Origin: Actinomycetota bacterium
GTDB lineage: Bacteria > Actinomycetota > Acidimicrobiia > Acidimicrobiales > Ilumatobacteraceae
Length of the DNA stretch: 64,000 nucleotides
Assembly: GCA_039796935.1 (NCBI GenBank)
Contig: JBDKIV010000240.1
Location: 14,376 to 78,375 of the forward strand
Direction: 5' to 3'
Positions 40,579 through 51,116 of this stretch are shown piece after piece. Both the position numbers and the translations under genes were made by a program. Below the pieces are notes generated by a model, which saw only the letters and a list, made by a program, of their open reading frames with translations, ran no database searches and was not told the origin of the DNA. Within the stretch, counting starts at the first letter, position 1, and the number at the start of each line of letters is the position of its first letter.

Positions 40579-42819
40579 CTACTGCTTGCCCATCTCGGAC
40601 CGCTGCTCGGTGGATGCGTCGGGGCCGACGGCGCGACCGAGCAACTCGATGTCGACGTGGTGCAGGACCCCTGCGAAGGAGAACGGCGACTCGTAACTCG
40701 TGCCGACGGGAGCACCGGCGTCACACCCGACGCTCAGGCCGTTGAACGGCATGAACCCGCGGATGACACGAGGGATCTCGACCGAACCCACGGGTCGACC
40801 GTCGACACCGAGCTCGCCGCGCGCCGACACCCGATCGAGCATCGTCAGGGTGAAGGTGACGTCGTGGTCACCCGGGTCGAGCGGCGTCTCGGCGCGGACC
40901 TCGTGACGCTCCATCGGGAAGTGGTAGTGGAAACATGCCCGACCGTCCTGGACGAACATCGCGTACCCGCCCCACCGGTCGCCCTCGGCGACCAGCACGC
41001 CATCGGTGGCACCCTCGCCGACGGTGATGCGGGCGTCGATCCGGAAGCCGGTGTTGACCAGCCGTGGACCGGCGTCGGACGGCAGCCGGACCAGACCGGG
41101 CCACAGCCGCCACGTGCGGCGGACCGGCCGGCGACGGCGACTCCCGGCGCCACCCCGATCGTCGATCGGCAGCACCTGGTAGCGCTCGGCCTCGTCCCAC
41201 CAGCGCTCGACCAACGCCTCGAGCACCTCGGGGTGCTGGCCGGCGAGATCGTGGCTCTCCGAGAAGTCCTCGTCGAGGTGGTACAGCTCCCACACGTCCT
41301 CGTCGAGCGGGCGTCGGGCGTCGTGCATGGTGACGGCCTTCCATCCGCCGGCGACGATGCCGCGGTGGCCGAGCATCTCGAAGTGCTGCACCGACTTGCG
41401 GGTCGGTGCGTCGGGCTCGGCGAAGGTGTAGGCCATCGAGGTGCCGTGCATCGGCATCTGGGCCACGCCGTTCACCGCCGGGGGCAGCGACGCTGCTGCG
41501 ACGTCGAGCACGGTCGGGGCGAGATCGCTCACGTGGTGGAACTGCCGCCGCAGCCCACCCGCAGAGCCCTCGGGCAACCCGGCCGGCCAATGGACCACGA
41601 GCGGGTCGCGCACGCCTCCGCCATGAGTGTTCTGCTTGTAGAACTTGCACGGCGTGTTGCCCGCCATGGCCCACCCGAGCGGGTAGTTGTTGAACCACTG
41701 CGTCTCGCCGATCTGGTCGAGCAGACCGAGCGACTGCTCGAGCGTCATCGGGGCGCGTTCGAAGTACCGGCCCTGGTGGAGCGTGCCGAACGGGCTGCCT
41801 TCCTGCGACGCCCCGTTGTCGCTCATCACCACGAACACGGTGTTGTCGAGCCGACCGACTCGCTCGAGCGTGGCGACCAGCCGACCGATCTGGGTGTCGG
41901 TGTGGCTGAGCATCGCCGCGTACGCCGCCTGGAACCGCACGTACAACCGCTGTTCGTCGGCCGACAGCGACTCCCACTCGGGCACACCGGGGTTGCGCGG
42001 CGGCAACTCGGTCGACCCGGGGATGATCCCCATCGCCTTCTGGCGGGCGATGCGGTCGAGGCGGGTGGCGTCCCAACCCTTCCGGAAGCGCTCTTCGTAC
42101 GCGTCGATCATGTCCTTCGGCACGTGATGGGGCGAGTGTCCGGCACCGAAGGCGAGGTACAGGAAGAACGGCTTCTCGGGGGCGACCGAGGTCTGGTCCG
42201 AGACGAGACCGATCGCCCGGTCGACGAGATCGGTGGTGAGGTGATAGCCGGGTGTGTCGGGGGTGGGGATGTGGTGGTTGTCCTCGGTGAGGAACGGCTC
42301 CCAGTGGTTCATGGCCCCGTCCATGAACCCGTAGAACCGGTCGAAACCACGCTGTGTCGGCCACTGGTGGAACGGCCCCGACGGGCCCGTGTGATGCATC
42401 GGCGTGAGATGCCACTTGCCGACCGCCCAGCTGTTCCAGCCGCGTTCGCGAAGGATCTCGGGCAGCAACGCCGCCTCGCGCGAGATGGCCCCCCGGTAGC
42501 CGGGGTGGCCCATGTCCCAGTTGGCGAGCGTGCCCATGCCGACGGCGTGGTGGTTGCGGCCGGTGAGCAACGAGGCGCGCGTCGGCGAACAGAGCGAGGT
42601 CGTGTGGAAGTTGGTGTACCGCAGCCCGCCCGCAGCCAGCCGGTCGATGTTCGGCGTGTCGATCTCGGACCCGTAACACCCGAAGTCGGAGTAGCCGACG
42701 TCGTCGAAGACGCAGAACACCACGCTCGGTGTACCGGGAGGTGCCTCGAACTCGGCCGGCCACATCGGCTCGGCGCTCGACATGGTGACGCCGGGGCGGA
42801 CTCGCGCTGTATCGCTCAT
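40579..42819 (-). CDS. Arylsulfatase (type I, formylglycine-dependent) with C-terminal extension
   Basis: DDVGYSDFGCYG and SLCSPTRASLLTGRNHH (C-x-P-x-R formylglycine motif). Start at ATG 42819, or at 42783. Confidence 0.85.
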   Translation of the reverse strand: MSDTARVRPGVTMSSAEPMWPAEFEAPPGTPSVVFCVFDDVGYSDFGCYGSEIDTPNIDRLAAGGLRYTNFHTTSLCSPTRASLLTGRNHHAVGMGTLANWDMGHPGYRGAISREAALLPEILRERGWNSWAVGKWHLTPMHHTGPSGPFHQWPTQRGFDRFYGFMDGAMNHWEPFLTEDNHHIPTPDTPGYHLTTDLVDRAIGLVSDQTSVAPEKPFFLYLAFGAGHSPHHVPKDMIDAYEERFRKGWDATRLDRIARQKAMGIIPGSTELPPRNPGVPEWESLSADEQRLYVRFQAAYAAMLSHTDTQIGRLVATLERVGRLDNTVFVVMSDNGASQEGSPFGTLHQGRYFERAPMTLEQSLGLLDQIGETQWFNNYPLGWAMAGNTPCKFYKQNTHGGGVRDPLVVHWPAGLPEGSAGGLRRQFHHVSDLAPTVLDVAAASLPPAVNGVAQMPMHGTSMAYTFAEPDAPTRKSVQHFEMLGHRGIVAGGWKAVTMHDARRPLDEDVWELYHLDEDFSESHDLAGQHPEVLEALVERWWDEAERYQVLPIDDRGGAGSRRRRPVRRTWRLWPGLVRLPSDAGPRLVNTGFRIDARITVGEGATDGVLVAEGDRWGGYAMFVQDGRACFHYHFPMERHEVRAETPLDPGDHDVTFTLTMLDRVSARGELGVDGRPVGSVEIPRVIRGFMPFNGLSVGCDAGAPVGTSYESPFSFAGVLHHVDIELLGRAVGPDASTEQRSEMGKQ

Positions 42820-42849
42820 GGCCTGTTTGTAGCCGATGCGCGAACCCTC

Positions 42850-42896
42850 GTCGACCACGGTTCGCCCCGGTCGACGCGGGATCGGTACCGTCGACC
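42850..42896. promoter_or_regulatory. Three GTCGAC palindromes at an exact 20-bp period in the sulfatase/kinase divergent promoter region
   Basis: GTCGAC occurs at 42850, 42870 and 42890. The outer context GGTCGAC (42869-75) and GTCGACC (42890-96) forms a 7-bp inverted repeat. Confidence 0.3.
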
Positions 42897-42924
42897 CGTT
42901 CCGAGACGACAGACGGGGGATGCG

Positions 42925-44010
42925 ATGTCGACAACGCAGGACGTTCGCGGGGAGCCCGCACAGATCGACGGGCCGTGGATGACCGAGGTCCTCGAGGCGG
43001 CAGGCGTCGCCCGAGGTGCGACCGTCACCGCCGTCACGCTCGACGGTTTCATCGGCACGGGCCAGACGGGCCGCAACGCCCGTTTGTCGCTCACGTGGGA
43101 CCGGCCCGACGATCGACCGGGCACCGTGGTCGGCAAGTTCCCGTCGGCCGACCCGACGGCACGATTCGCCGCGTTCGAGAACGGCACGTACCTGACCGAG
43201 TGGTCGTTCTACGACCAACTCGCCGACACCCTCTCGATCAGGACCCCGGCCTGCTACGCAGCACGGTTCGACGCCGACGCCCGCGACTTCGTGTTGATCA
43301 TGGAGGACCTGGCCGGCTCGCGCCAGGGCGACCAGTTCCGCGGGCTCACGGTGGACGAGGCATCGCTGGCCATCGAGCAGGCCGTCGGCCTGCACGCCCC
43401 CCGGTGGGGAGATCCCACGATCGCCTCCTTCGGCAGCCACCGACCGAAGGGTGACGAGGCCGCCGCTGCCCTCGGGATGGTGTACGGCATGATGGTCGAG
43501 CCGTTCCTCGATCGACTCGGGGGCGGGCTCGACGACGACGTCATCGAGTTGACCAGGGCGCTCATCCCGTTCGCCGGGGCGTGGGCCAGTGGGACCGACA
43601 CACCGCGTACCGTGGTGCACCTCGACTACCGACCCGACAACTTCATGTTCGGCGCCACGCCGGATGCGCCGCCGCTCGCCGTCGTCGACTGGCAGACGTG
43701 CACCGACGGCAACGCCATGTGGGATCTCGCCTACATGATCGGTGGCGGCTTCGAGCCGGCGCACCGGGCGCAGGTGGAGCGCTCGCTGCTCGACGACTAC
43801 CGCGCCCGCATGTCGAGCGCCGGTGTCGACTACGACGCCGACACGATGTGGCGCGACTATCGCCACGCGTCGCTGTGGGGCGTGGTGATGACCGTGATCG
43901 CCACGATCCTCGCCGCCGAGACCGAGCGGGGCAACGAGATGCTCACGGTGATGGGCCAACGCCACGGCCGGCATGCACTCGACCTCGAGGCGCTGGAGTT
44001 GCTGGGCTGA
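42925..44010 (+). CDS. Small-molecule phosphotransferase, APH/choline-kinase/EcKL-like fold
   Basis: ATG 42925 preceded by GGGGGA. Catalytic loop HLDYRPDNFMF (HxDxxxxN) and metal-binding VVDWQ. LIMEDL hinge-like segment. Confidence 0.75.
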   Translation: MSTTQDVRGEPAQIDGPWMTEVLEAAGVARGATVTAVTLDGFIGTGQTGRNARLSLTWDRPDDRPGTVVGKFPSADPTARFAAFENGTYLTEWSFYDQLADTLSIRTPACYAARFDADARDFVLIMEDLAGSRQGDQFRGLTVDEASLAIEQAVGLHAPRWGDPTIASFGSHRPKGDEAAAALGMVYGMMVEPFLDRLGGGLDDDVIELTRALIPFAGAWASGTDTPRTVVHLDYRPDNFMFGATPDAPPLAVVDWQTCTDGNAMWDLAYMIGGGFEPAHRAQVERSLLDDYRARMSSAGVDYDADTMWRDYRHASLWGVVMTVIATILAAETERGNEMLTVMGQRHGRHALDLEALELLG

Positions 44011-44012
44011 CG

Positions 44013-45263
44013 ATGATGCACACCGCGACGCTGCGTGTCCGCCGGATGGTGGTGCTCGGCGCATTCGTCGCGGTGATCGCGACCGCCTGGCTCGCCTTCG
44101 GACACCGGGGCCAGCACGTCGCGCGCGGCCTGTTGTTCCCCGGCGCCGGACTGGTCGACGAGCGGCCGTTGCTCGCAGCGCTGTGCCTCGCTGCCACCGT
44201 CGTGGCAACGCTGGCCTGGCTGCGATGGGGCGCGGACTGGCTGGTGGCCACCGCCGCCGGGCTCTCGGTGGTGCTCTCGGCCCTCGCCGTACCGGTGGGC
44301 CAGCACGCGAGCGGACCGGTGCACGATTCGTGGCAGGCATCCGCTGCAGCCCACGAGTTCCCGCTCGTCCTGATCGTCGTCGCGGTCGTCGCCTGGCTCC
44401 GGGCGCTCACCCTCCGGGTCCCGCTGATCGCTGCCTGGGTGAGCGCACGGCACCGACGTCGTGCGGGTCTCGGTGACACCGGCCAGCTCCCTCCGGTCGA
44501 CCGGTCACGGACGGCCGCGGTACTCGCCCTCGTCGGTGGCGAACTGGCCGGTCGCGCTGCGGCAGTGGCGGCCGATCCCGAGGTCGTCGAACGGGCCCGC
44601 CGGGTCGGTCTGGTGGCCCGGTTCCGCACCGGCGGCGACCCGTTGCGACATGACCATGCCCACGCCCGCGCTGCGCTGGCACTGACGGGTCGCGCCGACC
44701 GGGAGACGCTCGATCGACTGATCGCCGACACCGATCGTCACCCGCTCGGCGTGGTGTGCAGCGAGCCGGGGTGGGTCCGCCCCCTCGACGCAACCCTCGT
44801 CGCACTGGCGGTGTCGCGAGCGGGGGTTCGCCCCACCAGGTGGACCAGCGCGCTCGAGCAGCAGTTCGCCCTCGACCGTGGGCACCGGCCGGCCTGGTGG
44901 TGGACACCCCTCGGCATCGGCGCCGGATCGATGCCGGCGTGGGAGCACGCCACCACGGCATGTCTGGCGCGCGCCGCAGGGTGGATCGATCACGATCGCG
45001 ACTGGGAGGCACTCCGCCGCACCGCCCTCGGGGCATCGGCGCGCGGCACCTCGGTGGCCGCCGACGAACGCCTCATCGCCGCAGCCCGGATCCTCGCCTC
45101 GCTCGCCGGTGACACCGAGGCCGGCCGCCTGTTGGCCCGGCCGACGGTGCGCCACGACCCACTGGCCGTGGCCATCGACCTCCTCGCACGACGTCTCGCC
45201 GACGACCCATCAGCGCTCGCTCCCCGTGGGCTCGCACCGACCGAACGGACCTTCACCGCATGA
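44013..45263 (+). CDS. Membrane protein; divergent, shortened paralog of the two downstream Ldi-like genes
   Basis: ATG 44013, 2 nt after the kinase stop. N-terminal TM module with GLLFPGAGL ... LAWLRWG resembles GLSLVFPGGGF ... LVLWWG of the paralogs. VVCSEPGW resembles FFPCEPGW. Confidence 0.6.
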   Translation: MMHTATLRVRRMVVLGAFVAVIATAWLAFGHRGQHVARGLLFPGAGLVDERPLLAALCLAATVVATLAWLRWGADWLVATAAGLSVVLSALAVPVGQHASGPVHDSWQASAAAHEFPLVLIVVAVVAWLRALTLRVPLIAAWVSARHRRRAGLGDTGQLPPVDRSRTAAVLALVGGELAGRAAAVAADPEVVERARRVGLVARFRTGGDPLRHDHAHARAALALTGRADRETLDRLIADTDRHPLGVVCSEPGWVRPLDATLVALAVSRAGVRPTRWTSALEQQFALDRGHRPAWWWTPLGIGAGSMPAWEHATTACLARAAGWIDHDRDWEALRRTALGASARGTSVAADERLIAAARILASLAGDTEAGRLLARPTVRHDPLAVAIDLLARRLADDPSALAPRGLAPTERTFTA

Positions 45264-45277
45264 GCATCACCGTATGA
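45260..45277 (+). other. Five-codon relay mini-ORF (MSITV) created by a 14-bp tandem duplication
   Basis: The ATG at 45260 overlaps the stop of 44013..45263 (ATGA). Its TGA (45275-77) overlaps the ATG (45274-76) of the next gene. Confidence 0.4.
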
Positions 45278-45287
45278 GCATCACCGC
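45260..45287 (+). repeat. 14-bp direct tandem duplication ATGAGCATCACCG(T/C)
   Basis: Units at 45260-45273 and 45274-45287 are 13/14 identical. The duplication copies the start codon and the first four codons of the downstream gene. Confidence 0.9.
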
Positions 45288-47271
45288 ACCTCCCCCGGCC
45301 GGGACCGACACCGTCGAGCCGCAGGCCATCCCGCTGCTGCCCGAGCGACCGAAGCGGATGGGTCCTGTCACCCGATGGCTCGTGCTCCGCAGCGTTGCGG
45401 TCTTCGTCGTCTGGCAGGCGATCGCGGCTTCGCTCGTCGTGTTCGGCGGTGACACCGCCCGCGCCGGCGGCCTGTCCCTCGTCGTACCGGGAGGCGGGTT
45501 CGTGTTCACCGCCAGCCCGGTGCTGTTCGCGCTCACCTGGGTGGCGATGTCGGTCGCCGTGGTCCTCTGGTGGGGCATGAGCCTCCACGTCGGCATTCCG
45601 GTGGTGTGGATGCTGAGCGCCGTGGGCAGCGCGCTGGTGGCGAACGGCCCGCGCCTCTGGGTCGAGCGCGGCACCACGTGGGGATGGGCGATCCCGGCGA
45701 GCTACCTGCTGGCCGTCGTGCTGGTCGGCGCACTCGTGTGGTCGTTCGAGGCCCGCTTCCGTCGCAAGCGAGCCGCGGTCCCCGAGCTCAACGAGTACCT
45801 CGCCTCGGCCCGGCTGCCCGAACCGTCCCGAGCGCTGCGGACCCCCGACGAGATGGATGCCGAACTGCTCCGCTGGAGCTACGAACTCGCCCTGCAGCCC
45901 ATCGACCGCTTCGACGGGTTCGAGTGGGGCGAACAGTTCCACGGCGGGACCGTGGTCCGTTACCAGTTGAACTACCTCGGCTGGGCGCTCGCCCCCTACG
46001 CGGTCAACTACGTGCCCAACGCGCCCGGCCAGATCGAGCTGGCGCTTCGCAACCTGGTCATCAAACAGACCGACCTCCGTGTCTGGCAGTACTGGCAGAC
46101 CCTCAACCGGCTCGGCAACTTCGACGGCAATCCCGATCCGCTGGTGCGCGACAACATCATGTTCTCGGGCTTCACGGGCGACCAGATCAACCTCTACGAG
46201 GCCGCGACCGGCTCGACCTACTTCGACCAACCAGGTTCGCTGACGTTCGTGTGGAAAGACGGCCGCACCTTCGCGTACGACCACCACAGCTGGATGGAGG
46301 CGGTGCGCAAGAACTTCGAGCAGAGCCGGTTGGGGTTCTTCCCGTGCGAGCCGGGGTGGGCCTTCGCGGCGTGCAACACCCTCGGCGCGCAGGCGCTGTA
46401 CGGGCACGACCGCCTGCACGGGACGTCGCTGTGGGCGTCGGTCGAACCCAGATGGCGCGAGACGCTCGAACGCGAGTACCTGATGCCGGACGGCAACTAC
46501 GCCAACATCCGGTCGACCCACACGGGGCTGTCGTGGGACACCGGCGAGACGCCGGGCGGCGAGTACTTCGCCACGGGGACCCACCAGTTCCGCGATGTCG
46601 CACCCGACCTGGCAGCACGCGGTCGAGCACTGAGCTTGCGTCACGCACCGCAGAAGCTGGCCAAGCTCCGGGCCCTCATCGCCGATGGTGTGCTGCAGAT
46701 GCAGCTGCCCGACGAGTGGGAGCGCAACCGCGCCCGGCGCAGCGCGGTGCCCGGCTGGACGAAGCTGATCGGCGGTGCCCGGGCGGTCGGCGACGAAGAA
46801 CTCGCCGTCGCGGCCCAGCGCGCCCACGACCGACAGTGCGCCACGGGTCAGCGGTGGCCCGAGCGGCCGCTGGCCGTCGGGGTCTCCAACCTCGCCCTGC
46901 ACCTGCTGGTTCGCTGGTCGACCCCGATCGACAATGCTGCGTTGAACATCCGCGGCTACGTGCCACCGGTCGGTCCGGTCCTGCACGACGCGCCCTGGCC
47001 GGCAGTGCTGGTGACGCTGGCCCGCTCGAGCGACGGTGTCACACTCGACCTCGTGCTCCGTCCCGGCCCGGAGGCCGATGCGCGACCGGTCGGTCTCGGC
47101 TTCACCGCCCTGCAGCCCGGCACGACGTATCGGCTCGCGGGGGACGGGTTCGACGTCGAGTTCGTCGCCGACGGCGACGGGCACGGGTCGATCGACGTCA
47201 CCGTCGGGGCCACCCTGGCCCTGCGACTCGAGCCGGTCACGGCCGACACGGCGGACCGGGTGCTGTCATGA
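45274..47271 (+). CDS. Membrane-anchored protein with linalool dehydratase/isomerase (Ldi)-like domain, paralog A
   Basis: 665 aa. An N-terminal 4-TM module is followed by a soluble domain with RVWQYW, DNIMFSGF, FFPCEPGWAFAACN (C-x8-C) and GHDRLHGT, which align with my recollection of Ldi. Strong GC3 bias. Confidence 0.7.
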   Translation: MSITAPPPAGTDTVEPQAIPLLPERPKRMGPVTRWLVLRSVAVFVVWQAIAASLVVFGGDTARAGGLSLVVPGGGFVFTASPVLFALTWVAMSVAVVLWWGMSLHVGIPVVWMLSAVGSALVANGPRLWVERGTTWGWAIPASYLLAVVLVGALVWSFEARFRRKRAAVPELNEYLASARLPEPSRALRTPDEMDAELLRWSYELALQPIDRFDGFEWGEQFHGGTVVRYQLNYLGWALAPYAVNYVPNAPGQIELALRNLVIKQTDLRVWQYWQTLNRLGNFDGNPDPLVRDNIMFSGFTGDQINLYEAATGSTYFDQPGSLTFVWKDGRTFAYDHHSWMEAVRKNFEQSRLGFFPCEPGWAFAACNTLGAQALYGHDRLHGTSLWASVEPRWRETLEREYLMPDGNYANIRSTHTGLSWDTGETPGGEYFATGTHQFRDVAPDLAARGRALSLRHAPQKLAKLRALIADGVLQMQLPDEWERNRARRSAVPGWTKLIGGARAVGDEELAVAAQRAHDRQCATGQRWPERPLAVGVSNLALHLLVRWSTPIDNAALNIRGYVPPVGPVLHDAPWPAVLVTLARSSDGVTLDLVLRPGPEADARPVGLGFTALQPGTTYRLAGDGFDVEFVADGDGHGSIDVTVGATLALRLEPVTADTADRVLS

Positions 47272-47408
47272 TCTCGATGTACCTCAACTGCGCACAGGTG
47301 TGGGTCCGTCTCGTACGGCTCTGGTGCCGGCTCACCCGCCGGCCTCAGGTGACCTACGAGGCCCCGCCGCTCGCCCATGCCCGACCATCCGGTGGAGACC
47401 GCTCGTGA
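47268..47408 (+). CDS. Conserved micro-ORF (46 aa) coupled to both flanking genes
   Basis: MISMYLNCAQVWVRLVRLWCRLTRRPQVTYEAPP... Its ATG overlaps the upstream stop (ATGA) and its TGA overlaps the downstream GTG (GTGA). It is homologous to the micro-ORF at 49330..49428. Confidence 0.45.
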   Translation: MISMYLNCAQVWVRLVRLWCRLTRRPQVTYEAPPLAHARPSGGDRS

Positions 47409-49330
47409 CCGATCTGCTCCTGCTCCCTGAACGACCGAAGCGTTTCGGCCCGGTCACGCGCCGGTTGCTCGGCCGCTTCGTCGCCGTGATGCTGATGGTC
47501 GAGATCGTCGGCGCCGCGCTCGTGTTCGTGGCCGACGATCCGGTCGCCCGGGCGGCCGGTCTGTCCCTCGTGTTCCCGGGCGGCGGGTTCCTCTACGCCG
47601 CGTCGCCGGTGCTGTTCGTCGCCACGCAGGTCCTGGTGGTCGTGGCGCTCGTGCTGTGGTGGGGTCTCAGCACCCACTTCTCGATCCCCGCCGTCTGGGC
47701 GCTCGGCGTGATCGGTTCGGTGCTGCTCGCCGACGGGCCCAGGGTCTGGGTCGATCGCGGGACGCACTGGGACTGGGCGGTGCCGGTCGTGTACGCCGCA
47801 GCGCTCGTCACGCTGGGTGTGATGGTCTGGAAGGTCGAGCGGCGCTTCCGCGCCAAACGCGCCCGCGTGCCCGAGATCAACAGCTATCTGCGCGACGCAG
47901 CCGTTCCCGATCGCGTGACCGAACTCCGAGCGCCCGACGCGATGGATGCCGAGTTGCTTCGCTGGTGCTACTCGTTCGCCGACCAACCCGACGACGGCCT
48001 GGCCGGACTCGACTGGGGCGAGCAGTTCCACGGCGGCACGCAGCTCCGCTATCAGCTCAACAGCGTCGCTTGGTCGATGGCGCTGTACGCCGCGAACTAT
48101 CTGCCCAATGCCCCGCGCCGGATCGAACAGGCGCTCGGACGGGTGGTCGCCAAGCACACCGACCCGCGTGTGTGGGGCTACTGGCGCACGCTCAACCTGC
48201 TCGGCAACTTCGACCCGAACCCCGACCCGATCCGCCGCGACAACATCATGTTCTCGGCGTTCCTCGGCGATGTGATCAACAGCTTCGAGGCCGCCACCGG
48301 CTCGAGCCGGTTCGACGAGGCAGGGTCGCTCACGTTCGTGTGGCGCGACGGGCGCACCTTCGCCTACGACCATCACTCGATCGTCGCGGCGGTGCGCGCC
48401 AACTACGACCGCAGCCGGCTCGGGTTCTTCCCGTGCGAGCCCGGTTGGTCGTTCACGGTGTGCAACGTGATGGGCGCCCAGGCGCTCCACGGCCACGACA
48501 CGCTGCACGGCACCGACGAGTGGGACCAGGTGCGTGAGCGCTGGCGGCAGACCCTCGACGAGGAGTACCTCACACCCGACGGCTCGTATGCCCACATCCG
48601 TTCCAACCACGTCGGCCTGTCGTGGGACACGGGCGAGGTGCCGGGCGGTCACTACTTCGCCAACGGCACCCACCGGTTCGTCGACATCCTCCCCGATCAC
48701 GCTCGCCGCGCGAAGGCACTCGACCTTCGCGGGGCCAGCGGCAAGATGGCGGCGCTGTCGTCGATGATCCGCGACGGACGGCTCGAACTCGAACTGCCCG
48801 AAGAGCCCGAACGCCACCGGACCCGCTCGAGCGCACTACTCCCGTGGAACAAGGTGATCGGCGGCGCGCGCATGGTCGGCGACGCAGCCCTCACCCGAGC
48901 GGCGGTCGAAGCGTCGGCCCGGCAGTGCGCCACGGGTGAGCGCTGGCCGGGACGTCCGCTCGCCGTGGGTGGTGCCGGCATCGGCTCGCACATGCTGCTG
49001 CGCTGGTCCGCCCCACTCGACCTGGCCGCGCTCAACATGCGCGGCTACCTGGCCCCGGTGGGTCCGGTCGTCGACGAGGCCGACGACCGGGTGCTCGTCA
49101 CGCTCGCCCGCTGCGATGACGGTGTTCGGCTCGACCTGATGCTCGAGCCGTACGGCGAAGCCGTGCACGACGCCGTGCTGGCCGTCAGCGGGTTGGCCCC
49201 GTCGACCACGGCTCGGATCCACGGCGACGGTATCGACCTGAGCGTCGTTGCAGCGCCCGACGGGTCGGCGCGTGTCGTCGTGCCGCTCGTCGACCGACCG
49301 GTGCGTCTCGTCGTGGAGGCAGCGTCGTGA
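47405..49330 (+). CDS. Membrane-anchored protein with Ldi-like domain, paralog B
   Basis: GTG 47405 (VTDLLLLPERPKRFGPVTR parallels PLLPERPKRMGPVTR of paralog A). Shares long identical blocks with paralog A (WGEQFHGGT, GSLTFVW.DGRTFAYDHHS, RLGFFPCEPGW, GLSWDTGE). Confidence 0.7.
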   Translation: MTDLLLLPERPKRFGPVTRRLLGRFVAVMLMVEIVGAALVFVADDPVARAAGLSLVFPGGGFLYAASPVLFVATQVLVVVALVLWWGLSTHFSIPAVWALGVIGSVLLADGPRVWVDRGTHWDWAVPVVYAAALVTLGVMVWKVERRFRAKRARVPEINSYLRDAAVPDRVTELRAPDAMDAELLRWCYSFADQPDDGLAGLDWGEQFHGGTQLRYQLNSVAWSMALYAANYLPNAPRRIEQALGRVVAKHTDPRVWGYWRTLNLLGNFDPNPDPIRRDNIMFSAFLGDVINSFEAATGSSRFDEAGSLTFVWRDGRTFAYDHHSIVAAVRANYDRSRLGFFPCEPGWSFTVCNVMGAQALHGHDTLHGTDEWDQVRERWRQTLDEEYLTPDGSYAHIRSNHVGLSWDTGEVPGGHYFANGTHRFVDILPDHARRAKALDLRGASGKMAALSSMIRDGRLELELPEEPERHRTRSSALLPWNKVIGGARMVGDAALTRAAVEASARQCATGERWPGRPLAVGGAGIGSHMLLRWSAPLDLAALNMRGYLAPVGPVVDEADDRVLVTLARCDDGVRLDLMLEPYGEAVHDAVLAVSGLAPSTTARIHGDGIDLSVVAAPDGSARVVVPLVDRPVRLVVEAAS

Positions 49331-49428
49331 TGCTCGACTGCGACCGCCTGTGGACGCGTCTGGTGACACTCGTCTACCGGATCCGCCGCCGGCCTCGGGT
49401 GACTACGCCGCCGCAGCGACGGGGATGA
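49330..49428 (+). CDS. Conserved micro-ORF (32 aa) after paralog B
   Basis: MLDCDRLWTRLVTLVYRIRRRPRVTTPPQRRG. The ATG shares 1 nt with the upstream TGA. It aligns with 47268..47408 (L-[ND]-C-x2-[VL]-W-x-R-L-V-x-L-x2-R-[LI]-x-R-R-P-x-V-T), with synonymous differences at conserved residues. Confidence 0.4.
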   Translation: MLDCDRLWTRLVTLVYRIRRRPRVTTPPQRRG

Positions 49429-50749
49429 CGAGTCGGAACGTGGCGCCGCCGGCGTCGTGTTCGACGAGTTCGATCGTTCCGCCGCAGCGTTCGAGGAGCA
49501 GGTGGACGGTCGGCAGACCGAGCCCTCGACCCTCGCCCTTGGTCGACGAGAACGGCGTGAAGACGTCGCGGGCCAGCTCGGCCGGGACACCCGGGCCGTC
49601 GTCGCTGACCAGGACTTCGACCGCCGGACGACCGGACTGCACGGTGCTCGACAGCTTCACCCGGATCGAGCCGTGACCCTGCTGGGCATCCCCGGCGTTC
49701 GACACCAGATTGAGCATCACCTGCAGCAGATCGCCCTCGGACAACTCGACGACGGTGTGCTCGTCGACGTCGAGGTGGAAGCGGAGGTCGACCCCGCGAC
49801 CGGCCACCGAACGCAGGAACCCCATCGAACCGGCCAGGGCCGGAACGATCACGCACGACCCGCCCTCTGCCCCGCGTGACCCGCTGCGCAGTCGCTGCAA
49901 ACGTGCCGTCATGGCGGCAGCGTTGTCGCACGCTTCGAGGATCCGCTCGACACCCTGACGAGCCGAGTCGGACAGCTCCTCGCTCTCGAGCAGGCTGCAC
50001 TGGAGCGAGATCATCGTGATGAGGTTGTTCATGTCGTGAGCGACACCCGACGCCAGCCGTCCGATGTACCCGAGCCGCTCCTGCCGTTCGGCGAGCGCCC
50101 ACGCCTCTCGTTCGGCCGCTTGGGCTGCAGCACGCTCTCGATCGGTACGGATCACGTCGATCATGTGGGCACAGACCGCCAGGAACGGCTCGAGGAACTC
50201 GATGTCGTGCTCGTCGAACCCTCCCGGGCGGTTGGCGACCCCGATCATGCCGATCAGCACGTCGTTGCGACGAAGCGGCAAGCCGAGGAAGCTCACGAGC
50301 GGTGGGTGCCCGGGCGGAAGTCCACCACGACGCGGGTCGTGCGCCGGTTCGTTGCTGATGAGCGGCTCGCCCGAGGTGAGCACCCGACCGAACAACGTGT
50401 CGAGGTTCGAGAACACCAGCCCGCGGTCTTCGCCCTGGTTGTCGAGGTAGAGCTGCCGGGTGGCGTCGTCCCAGGCGATGTTGGTGAGCGCCCAGCTCTT
50501 CAGGTACGGCCGAGCGTCATCGGTGTAGAGCACCTCCCCGATGAAGCCGTACTCGCAGCCGGTGAGCCGCAGCACGTCGTCGAGGATCCGCTCGAACAGC
50601 TGCGGCCGATCGGCATCGCGGAAGTACAGCCGATGAGCACGTTCGATCGCGCCGAGGAGCTCGGACGCAGGTGACGTCGCTGTCTCCTCCACGACGGCCA
50701 ACTTAGTGCGTCCGACCTCGCTCGCGCGCGTGCTGGTCGCCGGCGGCAT
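49403..50749 (-). CDS. GAF-domain sensor histidine kinase
   Basis: GAF (CEYGFIGEV..FLGLPLRRNDVLIGMIGVANR), H-box ASGVAHDMNNLL, N-box LNLVSNAGDA, G1 DDGPGV, F FTPFSSTK, G2 GRGLGL. The start is uncertain (ATG 50749 used). Confidence 0.8.
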   Translation of the reverse strand: MPPATSTRASEVGRTKLAVVEETATSPASELLGAIERAHRLYFRDADRPQLFERILDDVLRLTGCEYGFIGEVLYTDDARPYLKSWALTNIAWDDATRQLYLDNQGEDRGLVFSNLDTLFGRVLTSGEPLISNEPAHDPRRGGLPPGHPPLVSFLGLPLRRNDVLIGMIGVANRPGGFDEHDIEFLEPFLAVCAHMIDVIRTDRERAAAQAAEREAWALAERQERLGYIGRLASGVAHDMNNLITMISLQCSLLESEELSDSARQGVERILEACDNAAAMTARLQRLRSGSRGAEGGSCVIVPALAGSMGFLRSVAGRGVDLRFHLDVDEHTVVELSEGDLLQVMLNLVSNAGDAQQGHGSIRVKLSSTVQSGRPAVEVLVSDDGPGVPAELARDVFTPFSSTKGEGRGLGLPTVHLLLERCGGTIELVEHDAGGATFRLVIPVAAAA

Positions 50750-51116
50750 GCGCCTCGGCCGGACGATCCGGCCGTGGCGCTGCCACGAGATTTGACGGTG
50801 CTGCGGGCGGGCACCACAGCACCGTCGATCTGCGAGCACGGGCGCTCATGCCGTGCTCACGCCCGCATGGTGTCGGGCAAGGCGGTGAGACCGCCGGCAG
50901 CCACGCTCTCGGGGCTCAAGCCCAGCGTGACTGCCGAGGCTGTTGGCGCACCACCCGCCGCGATCGCGAAGGCGCCGGCGTCCGCCGACCGGCGCAGCCA
51001 CCGCGCAGCGGGGGTTCGAGGTGGCTCGATCGGGCGGGGGTGCGTCACGGGTTGTAGAGAACCTGATCGTTCGTCGCTGCGAAACTCAGGAATCCATCAA
51101 TCTCCGGCGGGATGCT

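Follow-up and report, generated by a model that had tools for sequence, protein, structure and literature searches.

Conserved micro-proteins apparently encoded directly behind membrane-anchored Ldi-domain genes, from Acidimicrobiia to more distant bacteria

Two very short open reading frames (ORFs), m1 and m2, lie directly behind two large paralogous genes, A and B, in a 64,000-nucleotide stretch of contig JBDKIV010000240.1 (positions 14,376 to 78,375 of the forward strand; assembly GCA_039796935.1) from a member of the Ilumatobacteraceae. This whole stretch is referred to below as the window. The products of A and B resemble linalool dehydratase/isomerase (LDI) and Lis of Thauera linaloolentis. 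Judging from comparison with relatives, m1 and m2 are real protein-coding genes, and their translation in vivo, inferred on comparative grounds, is well supported. They would represent a micro-protein family that is so far known only immediately downstream of one clade of membrane-anchored Ldi-domain genes. The micro-proteins are probably small accessory subunits, not described before, which would be made through termination-reinitiation and would bind their cognate enzyme.

Occurrence and conservation of the micro-ORFs

The translation of m1 is MISMYLNCAQVWVRLVRLWCRLTRRPQVTYEAPPLAHARPSGGDRS. At its 5' end the ATG shares an ATGA with the stop codon of paralog A, at its 3' end the TGA shares a GTGA with the start codon of paralog B, and the start of m2 overlaps the stop of B, again as GTGA. 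A preliminary description of the locus, drawn up from the letters of the window, had given the m1 and m2 translations, the ATGA and GTGA overlaps and a 26-nt overlap of m2 with a kinase gene, all of which proved correct on re-reading. It had placed the start of m2 at ATG 49330; GTG 49327 is most likely the start instead, because orthologous B-type micro-ORFs begin with GTG-ATC on the TGA of the enzyme gene, where the window has GTG-ATG. The two peptides share 15/29 identities (BLASTP E = 7e-8 for the pair), and in a tblastn search of the 64-kb window each is the other's sole significant match, with E values of about 1e-5 to 3e-5. Synonymous codon differences at residues conserved between m1 and m2 are present as cited in that description.

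Relatives of the large enzyme gene, not of the micro-ORF, were sampled from genome and metagenome contigs (8 genome loci and 48 metagenome loci), so that the sample is unbiased toward loci bearing a micro-ORF; seven further loci were added by look-ups of individual proteins. About 70 distinct relatives of the enzyme gene were examined, ranging from Acidimicrobiia to homologues of 44-49% identity and including one from a named Gammaproteobacteria metagenome-assembled genome (MAG). A hidden Markov model (HMM) of the peptide was run on every stop-to-stop segment of all loci, and the matches were then paired with the 3' ends of enzyme genes. In the window and these loci the matches are found only directly behind Ldi-like genes, and all enzyme-gene 3' ends with enough downstream DNA bear a homologous micro-ORF. 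The claim that such a micro-ORF follows each paralog is thereby confirmed in every relative examined. The HMM detects it behind 68 genuine enzyme 3' ends, one further micro-ORF, in locus L004, is split by an assembly frameshift, and three rows without an HMM match are partial-alignment or frameshift artefacts. Frameshifts run throughout the Ldi-like genes and the first micro-ORF of L004 and L008, two MFD long-read MAG contigs; they look like typical long-read assembly errors and not like real pseudogenes.

The three most distant loci (L046, L049 and L053, 44-49% identity) give no HMM match, yet they contain divergent micro-ORFs at the same site, namely MRKYFIISRWWDRVMGWSLWLRGRPRCARSPFEPPP.. 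in L046, MRKYFVISRWWDHLVGLRVFLMRQQRCTQSP.. in L053 and ..VMSRWWSRFVGLRGWLLRRPRVENSP.. in L049. The micro-ORFs of L061-L063 are of this same divergent type, and that of L064, an Ilumatobacter genome, is of the main type. A profile-profile comparison aligns the divergent group colinearly with the main family at 85% probability (E 6e-6). Among the MAG names in the divergent group is Candidatus Azotimanducaceae, which we take to be a gammaproteobacterial family. Micro-ORFs left uncalled by gene predictors are found at about 6965-7087 in L061, about 6962-7120 in L062, 6288-6428 in L063 and 6974-7129 in L064. The exact motif of m1 and m2, used as a regular expression, has no match in the relatives, whereas tblastn and the HMM found micro-ORFs there. 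Single-copy modules (L005, L006, L009, L064 and others) also bear a micro-ORF, and the tandem duplication of the window therefore cannot explain it. Micro-ORFs are likewise present in loci of 53-56% G+C, one of them from the named Gammaproteobacteria MAG. Pairing by type gives 21 cases of an A-type enzyme with an a-type peptide and 27 of a B-type enzyme with a b-type peptide, and the pairing analysis contains 0 cases of a B-type enzyme with an a-type peptide. By these counts each paralog type has kept its own micro-protein type after duplication.

Selection was estimated on 59 distinct 24-codon cores of the micro-ORF, compared along a minimum spanning tree, using the Nei-Gojobori ratio of nonsynonymous to synonymous divergence (dN/dS). 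An in-frame stop codon is found in 0 of the 59 cores. The differences at codon positions 1, 2 and 3 number 181, 125 and 375, which is not the equal divergence at all codon positions that the preliminary description had named as a sign of mere DNA duplication. The dN/dS is 0.28 in the micro-ORF frame, whereas the two remaining forward frames give 1.28 and 2.34, in agreement with the earlier suggestion that selection acts on the peptide and not on the DNA; conservation of the frame is seen also in the indels between the two peptide types, which are multiples of three. The antisense frame of the core is also largely stop-free. The proportion of nonsynonymous differences (pN) is 0.106 in the micro-ORF core. 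In the catalytic region of the enzyme, along the same tree edges, pN is 0.126 and dN/dS 0.23; enzyme codons -125 to -25 give 0.259 and 0.43, and the last 25 codons of the enzyme 0.393 and 0.71. Amino-acid conservation thus climbs sharply from the enzyme tail into the micro-ORF, the core of which is close to the catalytic domain in amino-acid divergence. Purifying selection on the micro-ORF is well supported by these comparisons of sequences.

The start codon of the micro-ORF stands one base before the enzyme stop (RTGA, usually RTGATC) in 62 of the 68 HMM-detected cases. The other junctions comprise TGATG, a 7-nt gap, a micro-ORF in the same frame directly after the TGA (L063) and a 15-nt gap with AAGGAGGA (L049). 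A start codon is retained in all variant junctions, and this, together with the varied relative frame, argues for independent initiation and against a fusion by frameshifting or read-through. Pairing with the anti-Shine-Dalgarno sequence in the region -18 to -4 upstream of the start averages -7.4 kcal/mol, against -2.6 kcal/mol in controls, which were positions inside the same genes; values of -6 kcal/mol or lower are reached by 64% of the starts and 8.5% of the controls (Mann-Whitney p = 9e-28). Both features of translationally coupled cistrons are therefore seen, an overlapping or abutting stop and start and a ribosome-binding-like sequence within the upstream gene. The coupling proposed in the preliminary description is borne out by the conservation of the RTGA overlaps and of the Shine-Dalgarno-like (SD-like) sequence in relatives. 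Its further claim, that ribosomes would traverse m1 to reach B, accords with an RTGA overlap of the m1 stop and the B start in 22 of the 28 cases in which an ORF follows on the same strand, which implies that the chain A-m1-B-m2 is coupled throughout.

Properties of the peptide family

Database searches place the family in 93 clusters at 90% identity and, among 1.84 billion representative proteins, in 39 clusters at 50% identity. Stand-alone proteins of fewer than 90 amino acids (aa) make up nearly all of them, and those that are named are called 'hypothetical protein'; the usual length is about 32-72 aa (median 43 aa). No genuine fusion to a larger protein was found among these representatives. 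The longer entries P0225 and P0042 were considered as fusions and rejected as N-terminally extended gene calls (one of 123 aa), and P0243 was rejected as a spurious repeat protein. The m1 and m2 peptides have no match in Pfam, NCBIfam, PHROGs or the PDB sequences, the micro-ORF region has none in Rfam, and no description of the family was found in the domain libraries or the literature searched.

The family consensus is M-I-[LV]-[ND]-C-[DA]-[RK]-x-W-[TV]-x-[LM]-V-x4-[RK]-[LVI]-x-R-[RK]-P-[RQ]-V-T-x2-3-P-P, behind which comes a hypervariable tail. For m1, AlphaFold2 predicts one helix at residues 3-22, the remainder being disordered. Hydrophobic residues in the family occupy positions i, i+3, i+4 and i+7 with basic residues between them, and the mean hydrophobic moment is 0.53 (z = 1.8 against shuffles); moment and model both support the earlier characterisation of the peptides as Arg/Leu/Trp-rich amphipathic helices. 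The tail, RRP(R/Q)VT..PP, is basic and contains proline. The median net charge of the family is +6, and arginine makes up 16.7% of its residues. For m1 and m2 respectively, the grand average of hydropathy is -0.25 and -0.77, the isoelectric point 10.7 and 11.9, and the maximum 15-residue Kyte-Doolittle mean about 1.1 and 0.65. Neither peptide has a single hydrophobic transmembrane (TM) helix, the helix being amphipathic instead. The suggestion that the peptides interact with the membrane thus stands as regards an amphipathic helix and falls as regards a membrane span, for which they are too weakly hydrophobic. The net charge of the peptide is +5 to +6.5, against about -12 for the cytosolic domain of the enzyme, and these opposite charges may be taken as weak evidence compatible with binding.

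The large enzymes and their gene neighbourhood

Paralogs A and B share 60% identity; each scores well over the gathering threshold of Pfam PF18566 (Ldi), with E values of 2.4e-57 (A) and 4.7e-54 (B). Hydropathy places TM segments within the first ~160 residues of the large proteins. The AlphaFold2 model of B, with a predicted local distance difference test score (pLDDT) of 92.5, consists of N-terminal TM helices, an alpha/alpha barrel and a C-terminal beta domain, with helices H16-41, H68-87, H93-108 and H125-152. Its best 27 fold matches in the PDB by Foldseek are all LDI, at a target-normalised TM-score of about 0.6. Both LDI cysteines align in B (C344 and C353, CEP...CN motif) and are invariant in 51 homologues. 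Lis-type architecture, that is, four N-terminal TM helices and an Ldi-like domain, is found in both proteins (665 and 641 aa). Lis of Thauera linaloolentis 47Lol is a protein of 644 aa in which four TM helices at the N-terminus precede a cytosolic Ldi-like domain, and no signal peptide is predicted for it; when made in E. coli it reached the membrane and showed no activity (PMC4791888). The lis gene is set off from its neighbours by more than 150 bp (PMC4791888), which leaves room enough for an unannotated micro-ORF.

Positions 42979-49428 of the window read as a single plus-strand operon, the features of which are listed in Table 1.

Table 1. Features of the operon and its convergent neighbour, in window coordinates
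Feature	Position	Strand	Remarks
APH/EcKL-family phosphotransferase gene, first in operon	42979-44010	+	Pfam PF01636 and PF02958; start chosen, ATG 42979
416-aa membrane protein gene	44013-45263	+	without Pfam match
5-codon mini-ORF MSITV*	45260-45277	+	read off the sequence; ATGA overlap at either end
Ldi/Lis-like paralog A, 665 aa	45274-47271	+	PF18566; about 4 N-terminal TM helices, Ldi-fold domain, C-terminal beta domain
micro-ORF m1, 46 aa	47268-47408	+	family HMM E 2e-23
Ldi/Lis-like paralog B, 641 aa	47405-49330	+	PF18566; AlphaFold2 model; fold matches
GGAGG Shine-Dalgarno-like sequence	49315-49319	+	7 nt ahead of the m2 start, within the final codons of B
micro-ORF m2, 33 aa from GTG 49327 (32 aa from ATG 49330)	49327-49428	+	family HMM E 1e-15
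GAF-HisKA-HATPase histidine kinase ORF, convergent neighbour	49403-50839	-	Pfam; not part of the conserved module

The last 26 nt of m2 (49403-49428) overlap the 3' end of the convergent kinase ORF, so that there is no space for a terminator between the two. The genes 3' of the module vary among the other loci inspected (e.g. L009, L010, L012, L061 and L064), and for this reason the overlap looks specific to the window genome. On the 5' side, the APH gene holds the same upstream position in L010, L012 and L061-L064. An APH/EcKL kinase gene stands immediately upstream of the Ldi-like gene or genes both in Acidimicrobiia and in the divergent group, to which a gammaproteobacterial MAG belongs; in L009 the module occurs with no kinase. 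Cytochrome P450 genes adjoin the module in L062 and L063. The kinase and P450 neighbours suggest that the module may serve a pathway acting on a small hydrophobic alcohol.

The 416-aa protein has no match in Pfam or NCBIfam. In BLASTP it aligns weakly and colinearly with paralog B (E 6e-4); the alignment takes in the motifs FPGxG and CSEPGW, the former borne by its hydrophobic N-terminal segments. Genes of comparable length stand in its place in L010 (425 aa) and L064 (439 aa). Possibly the 416-aa protein is a shorter, remote paralogue of the Lis-like proteins; a micro-ORF does not follow its gene. A 14-nt tandem duplication at the start of paralog A (45260-45273 / 45274-45287, ATGAGCATCACCGT / ATGAGCATCACCGC) creates the MSITV* mini-ORF, whose ATG overlaps the stop of the 416-aa gene and whose TGA overlaps the ATG of A. 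Loci such as L010 and L064 show a direct overlap between the upstream gene and the start of the Ldi-like gene. The duplication could be a genuine variant or an assembly artefact. At the upstream end of the operon long ORFs run on opposing strands: a minus-strand ORF at 40579-44340 contains a sulfatase domain at about 41200-42700, and a plus-strand ORF at 40657-44010 contains the APH domain at about 43100-43800. The parts outside these domains are probably shadow ORFs typical of GC-rich DNA.

Three distant Lis-like genes are located on plasmids of cultured bacteria, each with a short ORF at its stop. This ORF has 74 aa and an ATGA overlap in Rhodococcus opacus (L066, 4854-5078), 38 aa and a TGATG overlap in Aureimonas (L067, 4893-5009, MACCILAGLAFGAALSLARAIRRLFG..), and 130 aa after a 6-nt gap in Novosphingobium resinovorum (L065, 4852-5244, MSCCILAALLIAHIMAVLRRW..). 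The family HMM detects none of the three, and homology to the micro-protein family is not detectable in them. The Aureimonas and Novosphingobium ORFs have a common N-terminus of the type M[SA]CCILA (pairwise E 5e-4); their enzymes are only 31% identical. The Lis-like homologue of Aureimonas sp. AU20 (plasmid pAU20b, 2270-5419, 29% identity) lies between uppS, for polyprenyl diphosphate synthase, with a 4-nt overlap, and a gene of the diacylglycerol kinase family. This arrangement hints that some family members may act on polyprenols and not on monoterpenes.

Possible roles of the micro-proteins and known systems

According to the mechanism proposed here, a ribosome that ends the enzyme gene would reinitiate at the ATG or GTG one base before the stop, aided by an SD-like GGAG in the last codons of the enzyme. 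The micro-protein would be made on the enzyme's own mRNA and in step with the enzyme, its product being a predicted amphipathic helix of ~20 residues, rich in Arg, Trp and Leu, with a basic, disordered, proline-containing tail. The peptide would then bind the acidic cytosolic domain of its own enzyme at the cytoplasmic face of the membrane, and each paralog would keep a matched micro-protein partner. We infer this physical binding, and any effect on the enzyme, from the features described above. Of the two roles suggested in the preliminary description, that of a small subunit fits the data, whereas that of a pure coupling device fails as a general role, there being no conserved gene behind the micro-ORF in single-copy modules.

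Several points weigh against an accessory subunit. The strict linkage and the co-divergence are equally expected of any cis-acting element and are not proof of binding. The peptide is not a TM helix, unlike most known small subunits of membrane enzymes. The Cys of the LNC motif is not invariant, and the Trp and a few other positions are nearly so; from so few near-invariant positions no specific contact is inferable. Nearly all sequences come from metagenome-assembled contigs, and the spanning tree was built on the micro-ORF core itself, which lowers the absolute divergence and should affect the ratio less. Any tie to the inactivity of Thauera Lis is speculative.

The gene order might also be read as that of a cis-acting regulatory, coupling or arrest peptide, the translation or stalling of which tunes the next cistron or the stability of the mRNA while the free peptide is functionless. 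In tandem loci m1 is bracketed by RTGA overlaps, so that ribosomes reach B by way of m1 (the 22 of 28 cases above), and the Trp and Pro at fixed spacing, with PP or PPP thereafter, form a pattern W...RRP...PP(P) that recalls arrest peptides; in the absence of EF-P, ribosomes slow down at polyproline stretches. We nevertheless consider such a peptide unlikely, since single-copy modules and m2 have no conserved downstream gene, their neighbours being convergent or unrelated, since selection acts on the entire amphipathic helix, also at residues distant from the tail, and since the peptide type co-diverges with the upstream enzyme. The cationic, amphipathic, Arg/Trp-rich composition and the lack of a detectable relation to known domains would equally suit a peptide with a function of its own, for example binding to a membrane interface or to nucleic acid, that is co-inherited with the enzyme merely through the shared transcript. 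This too is rather improbable, given that every HMM match in the window and the loci adjoins an enzyme gene and that each paralog kept its own copy and type after duplication.

It is very improbable that the micro-ORF is a C-terminal extension of the enzyme, reached by programmed -1 frameshifting or stop-codon read-through. Although in most loci it begins right at the stop in the -1 frame, and in L063 it lies in the enzyme's own frame with only a TGA between, the relative frame varies (-1; +1 with a 7-nt gap; +2 with TGATG; 0; a 15-nt gap), every locus keeps a start codon and an SD-like sequence, and the 1.84 billion representative proteins contain no genuine fusion. A precursor or peptide substrate like those of peptides that are made on the ribosome and modified after translation (RiPPs) would have an N-terminal leader and a core in the variable tail, modified by the APH-type kinase and the alpha/alpha-barrel protein. 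The conserved N-terminal part with its hypervariable C-terminal tail would suit it, as would the APH kinase adjoining the module in several Acidimicrobiia and in divergent, partly gammaproteobacterial loci. There is little chance that it applies, however: Cys and Thr are not invariant (LNID and VNTN occur, and divergent types differ), the Pro/Arg/Ser-rich tails have no conserved pattern of modifiable residues, neither a protease nor an exporter is conserved near the module in the loci inspected, L009 lacks the kinase, and the barrel has the LDI fold with the LDI cysteine pair, no lanthionine cyclase being among the fold matches listed. The combination of conserved core residues with a nearby modifying enzyme, protease or exporter that marks RiPP precursors was not found. 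A lanthipeptide-like idea, combining the kinase, the barrel and a Cys/Thr peptide, was rejected on the same two grounds of variable Cys and Thr and an LDI fold. Finally, spurious ORFs abound in GC-rich genomes and the antisense frame of the core is largely open, so that a relic of tandem duplication or a conserved DNA or RNA element with a chance open frame might be imagined in place of a gene. The probability of this is close to nil: the ORF stands also behind single-copy enzyme genes and in loci of 53-56% G+C, third codon positions diverge most, the low dN/dS is confined to the micro-ORF frame, indels in the ORF are multiples of three, and Rfam has no match.

Beyond the accessory-subunit reading, it is conceivable, though we hold it doubtful, that membrane-anchored Ldi/Lis-type hydratase-isomerases are obligate two-component enzymes with a basic amphipathic micro-protein of ~40 aa as second component. 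The missing partner would then explain the inactive recombinant Thauera Lis, and the homologues of Rhodococcus, Aureimonas and Novosphingobium would follow the same rule with a different partner. If the micro-protein is indeed required, its co-expression could render this family of enzymes usable; the one membrane-anchored member characterised so far was inactive in E. coli (PMC4791888). The micro-protein family itself is an uncatalogued conserved bacterial family, statistically strong and often skipped by gene callers, and its members pair one-to-one with alkene/alkenol hydratase-isomerases, an enzyme class that interests biocatalysis. A gene of 33 codons could be recognised from no more than its RTGA overlap, its SD-like sequence and the divergence at third codon positions.

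By published description, Lis of Thauera is the closest characterised relative of A and B in architecture, and it shares with them a length of about 640-665 aa, four N-terminal TM helices and an LDI-related domain. Unlike lis, the A/B gene is duplicated and shares its operon with an APH-type kinase gene; Lis has no reported small partner. LDI/LinD of Castellaniella defragrans (PDB 5hlr, 5g1u, 5i3t) has the same alpha/alpha-barrel fold and both CEP...CN cysteines. Its sequence identity to A and B is only about 15%, however, and the C-terminal beta domain of A and B is not present in LDI. LDI forms soluble homopentamers in the periplasm, its subunits measuring about 370-400 aa and lacking a membrane anchor, and we know of no trailing micro-ORF for it.

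The 4-nt overlaps from enzyme to micro-ORF and from micro-ORF to B, with an SD-like sequence in the upstream gene, are those of common ATGA/GTGA termination-reinitiation. The mechanism itself is not unusual; what sets the present case apart from ordinary coupled cistrons is that a cistron of 33-46 codons has been kept as a partner from Acidimicrobiia to Gammaproteobacteria. With the arrest and leader peptides SecM, TnaC and MifM the micro-ORF shares its shortness, a conserved Trp and a conserved Pro-containing motif near the C-terminus. SecM, TnaC and MifM lie upstream of the gene that they control, whereas the micro-ORF lies downstream of its conserved neighbour, often with nothing conserved after it, and only m1 in tandem loci is placed upstream of such a gene.

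Small proteins that are encoded with a large membrane protein, and probably act on it, are a known kind. CydX (cytochrome bd oxidase), KdpF (KdpFABC) and AcrZ (AcrB) are small accessory proteins encoded in the operon of their partner. Like them, m1 and m2 have fewer than 50 aa, are located in the operon of a large membrane protein and are of a size routinely missed by annotation, and by analogy the family would be expected to act by binding its partner. It has no sequence relation to any described family (Pfam, NCBIfam and PDB sequences). CydX, KdpF and AcrZ are single hydrophobic TM helices, whereas the present family differs as a strongly basic, amphipathic helix that is not hydrophobic enough to span the membrane.

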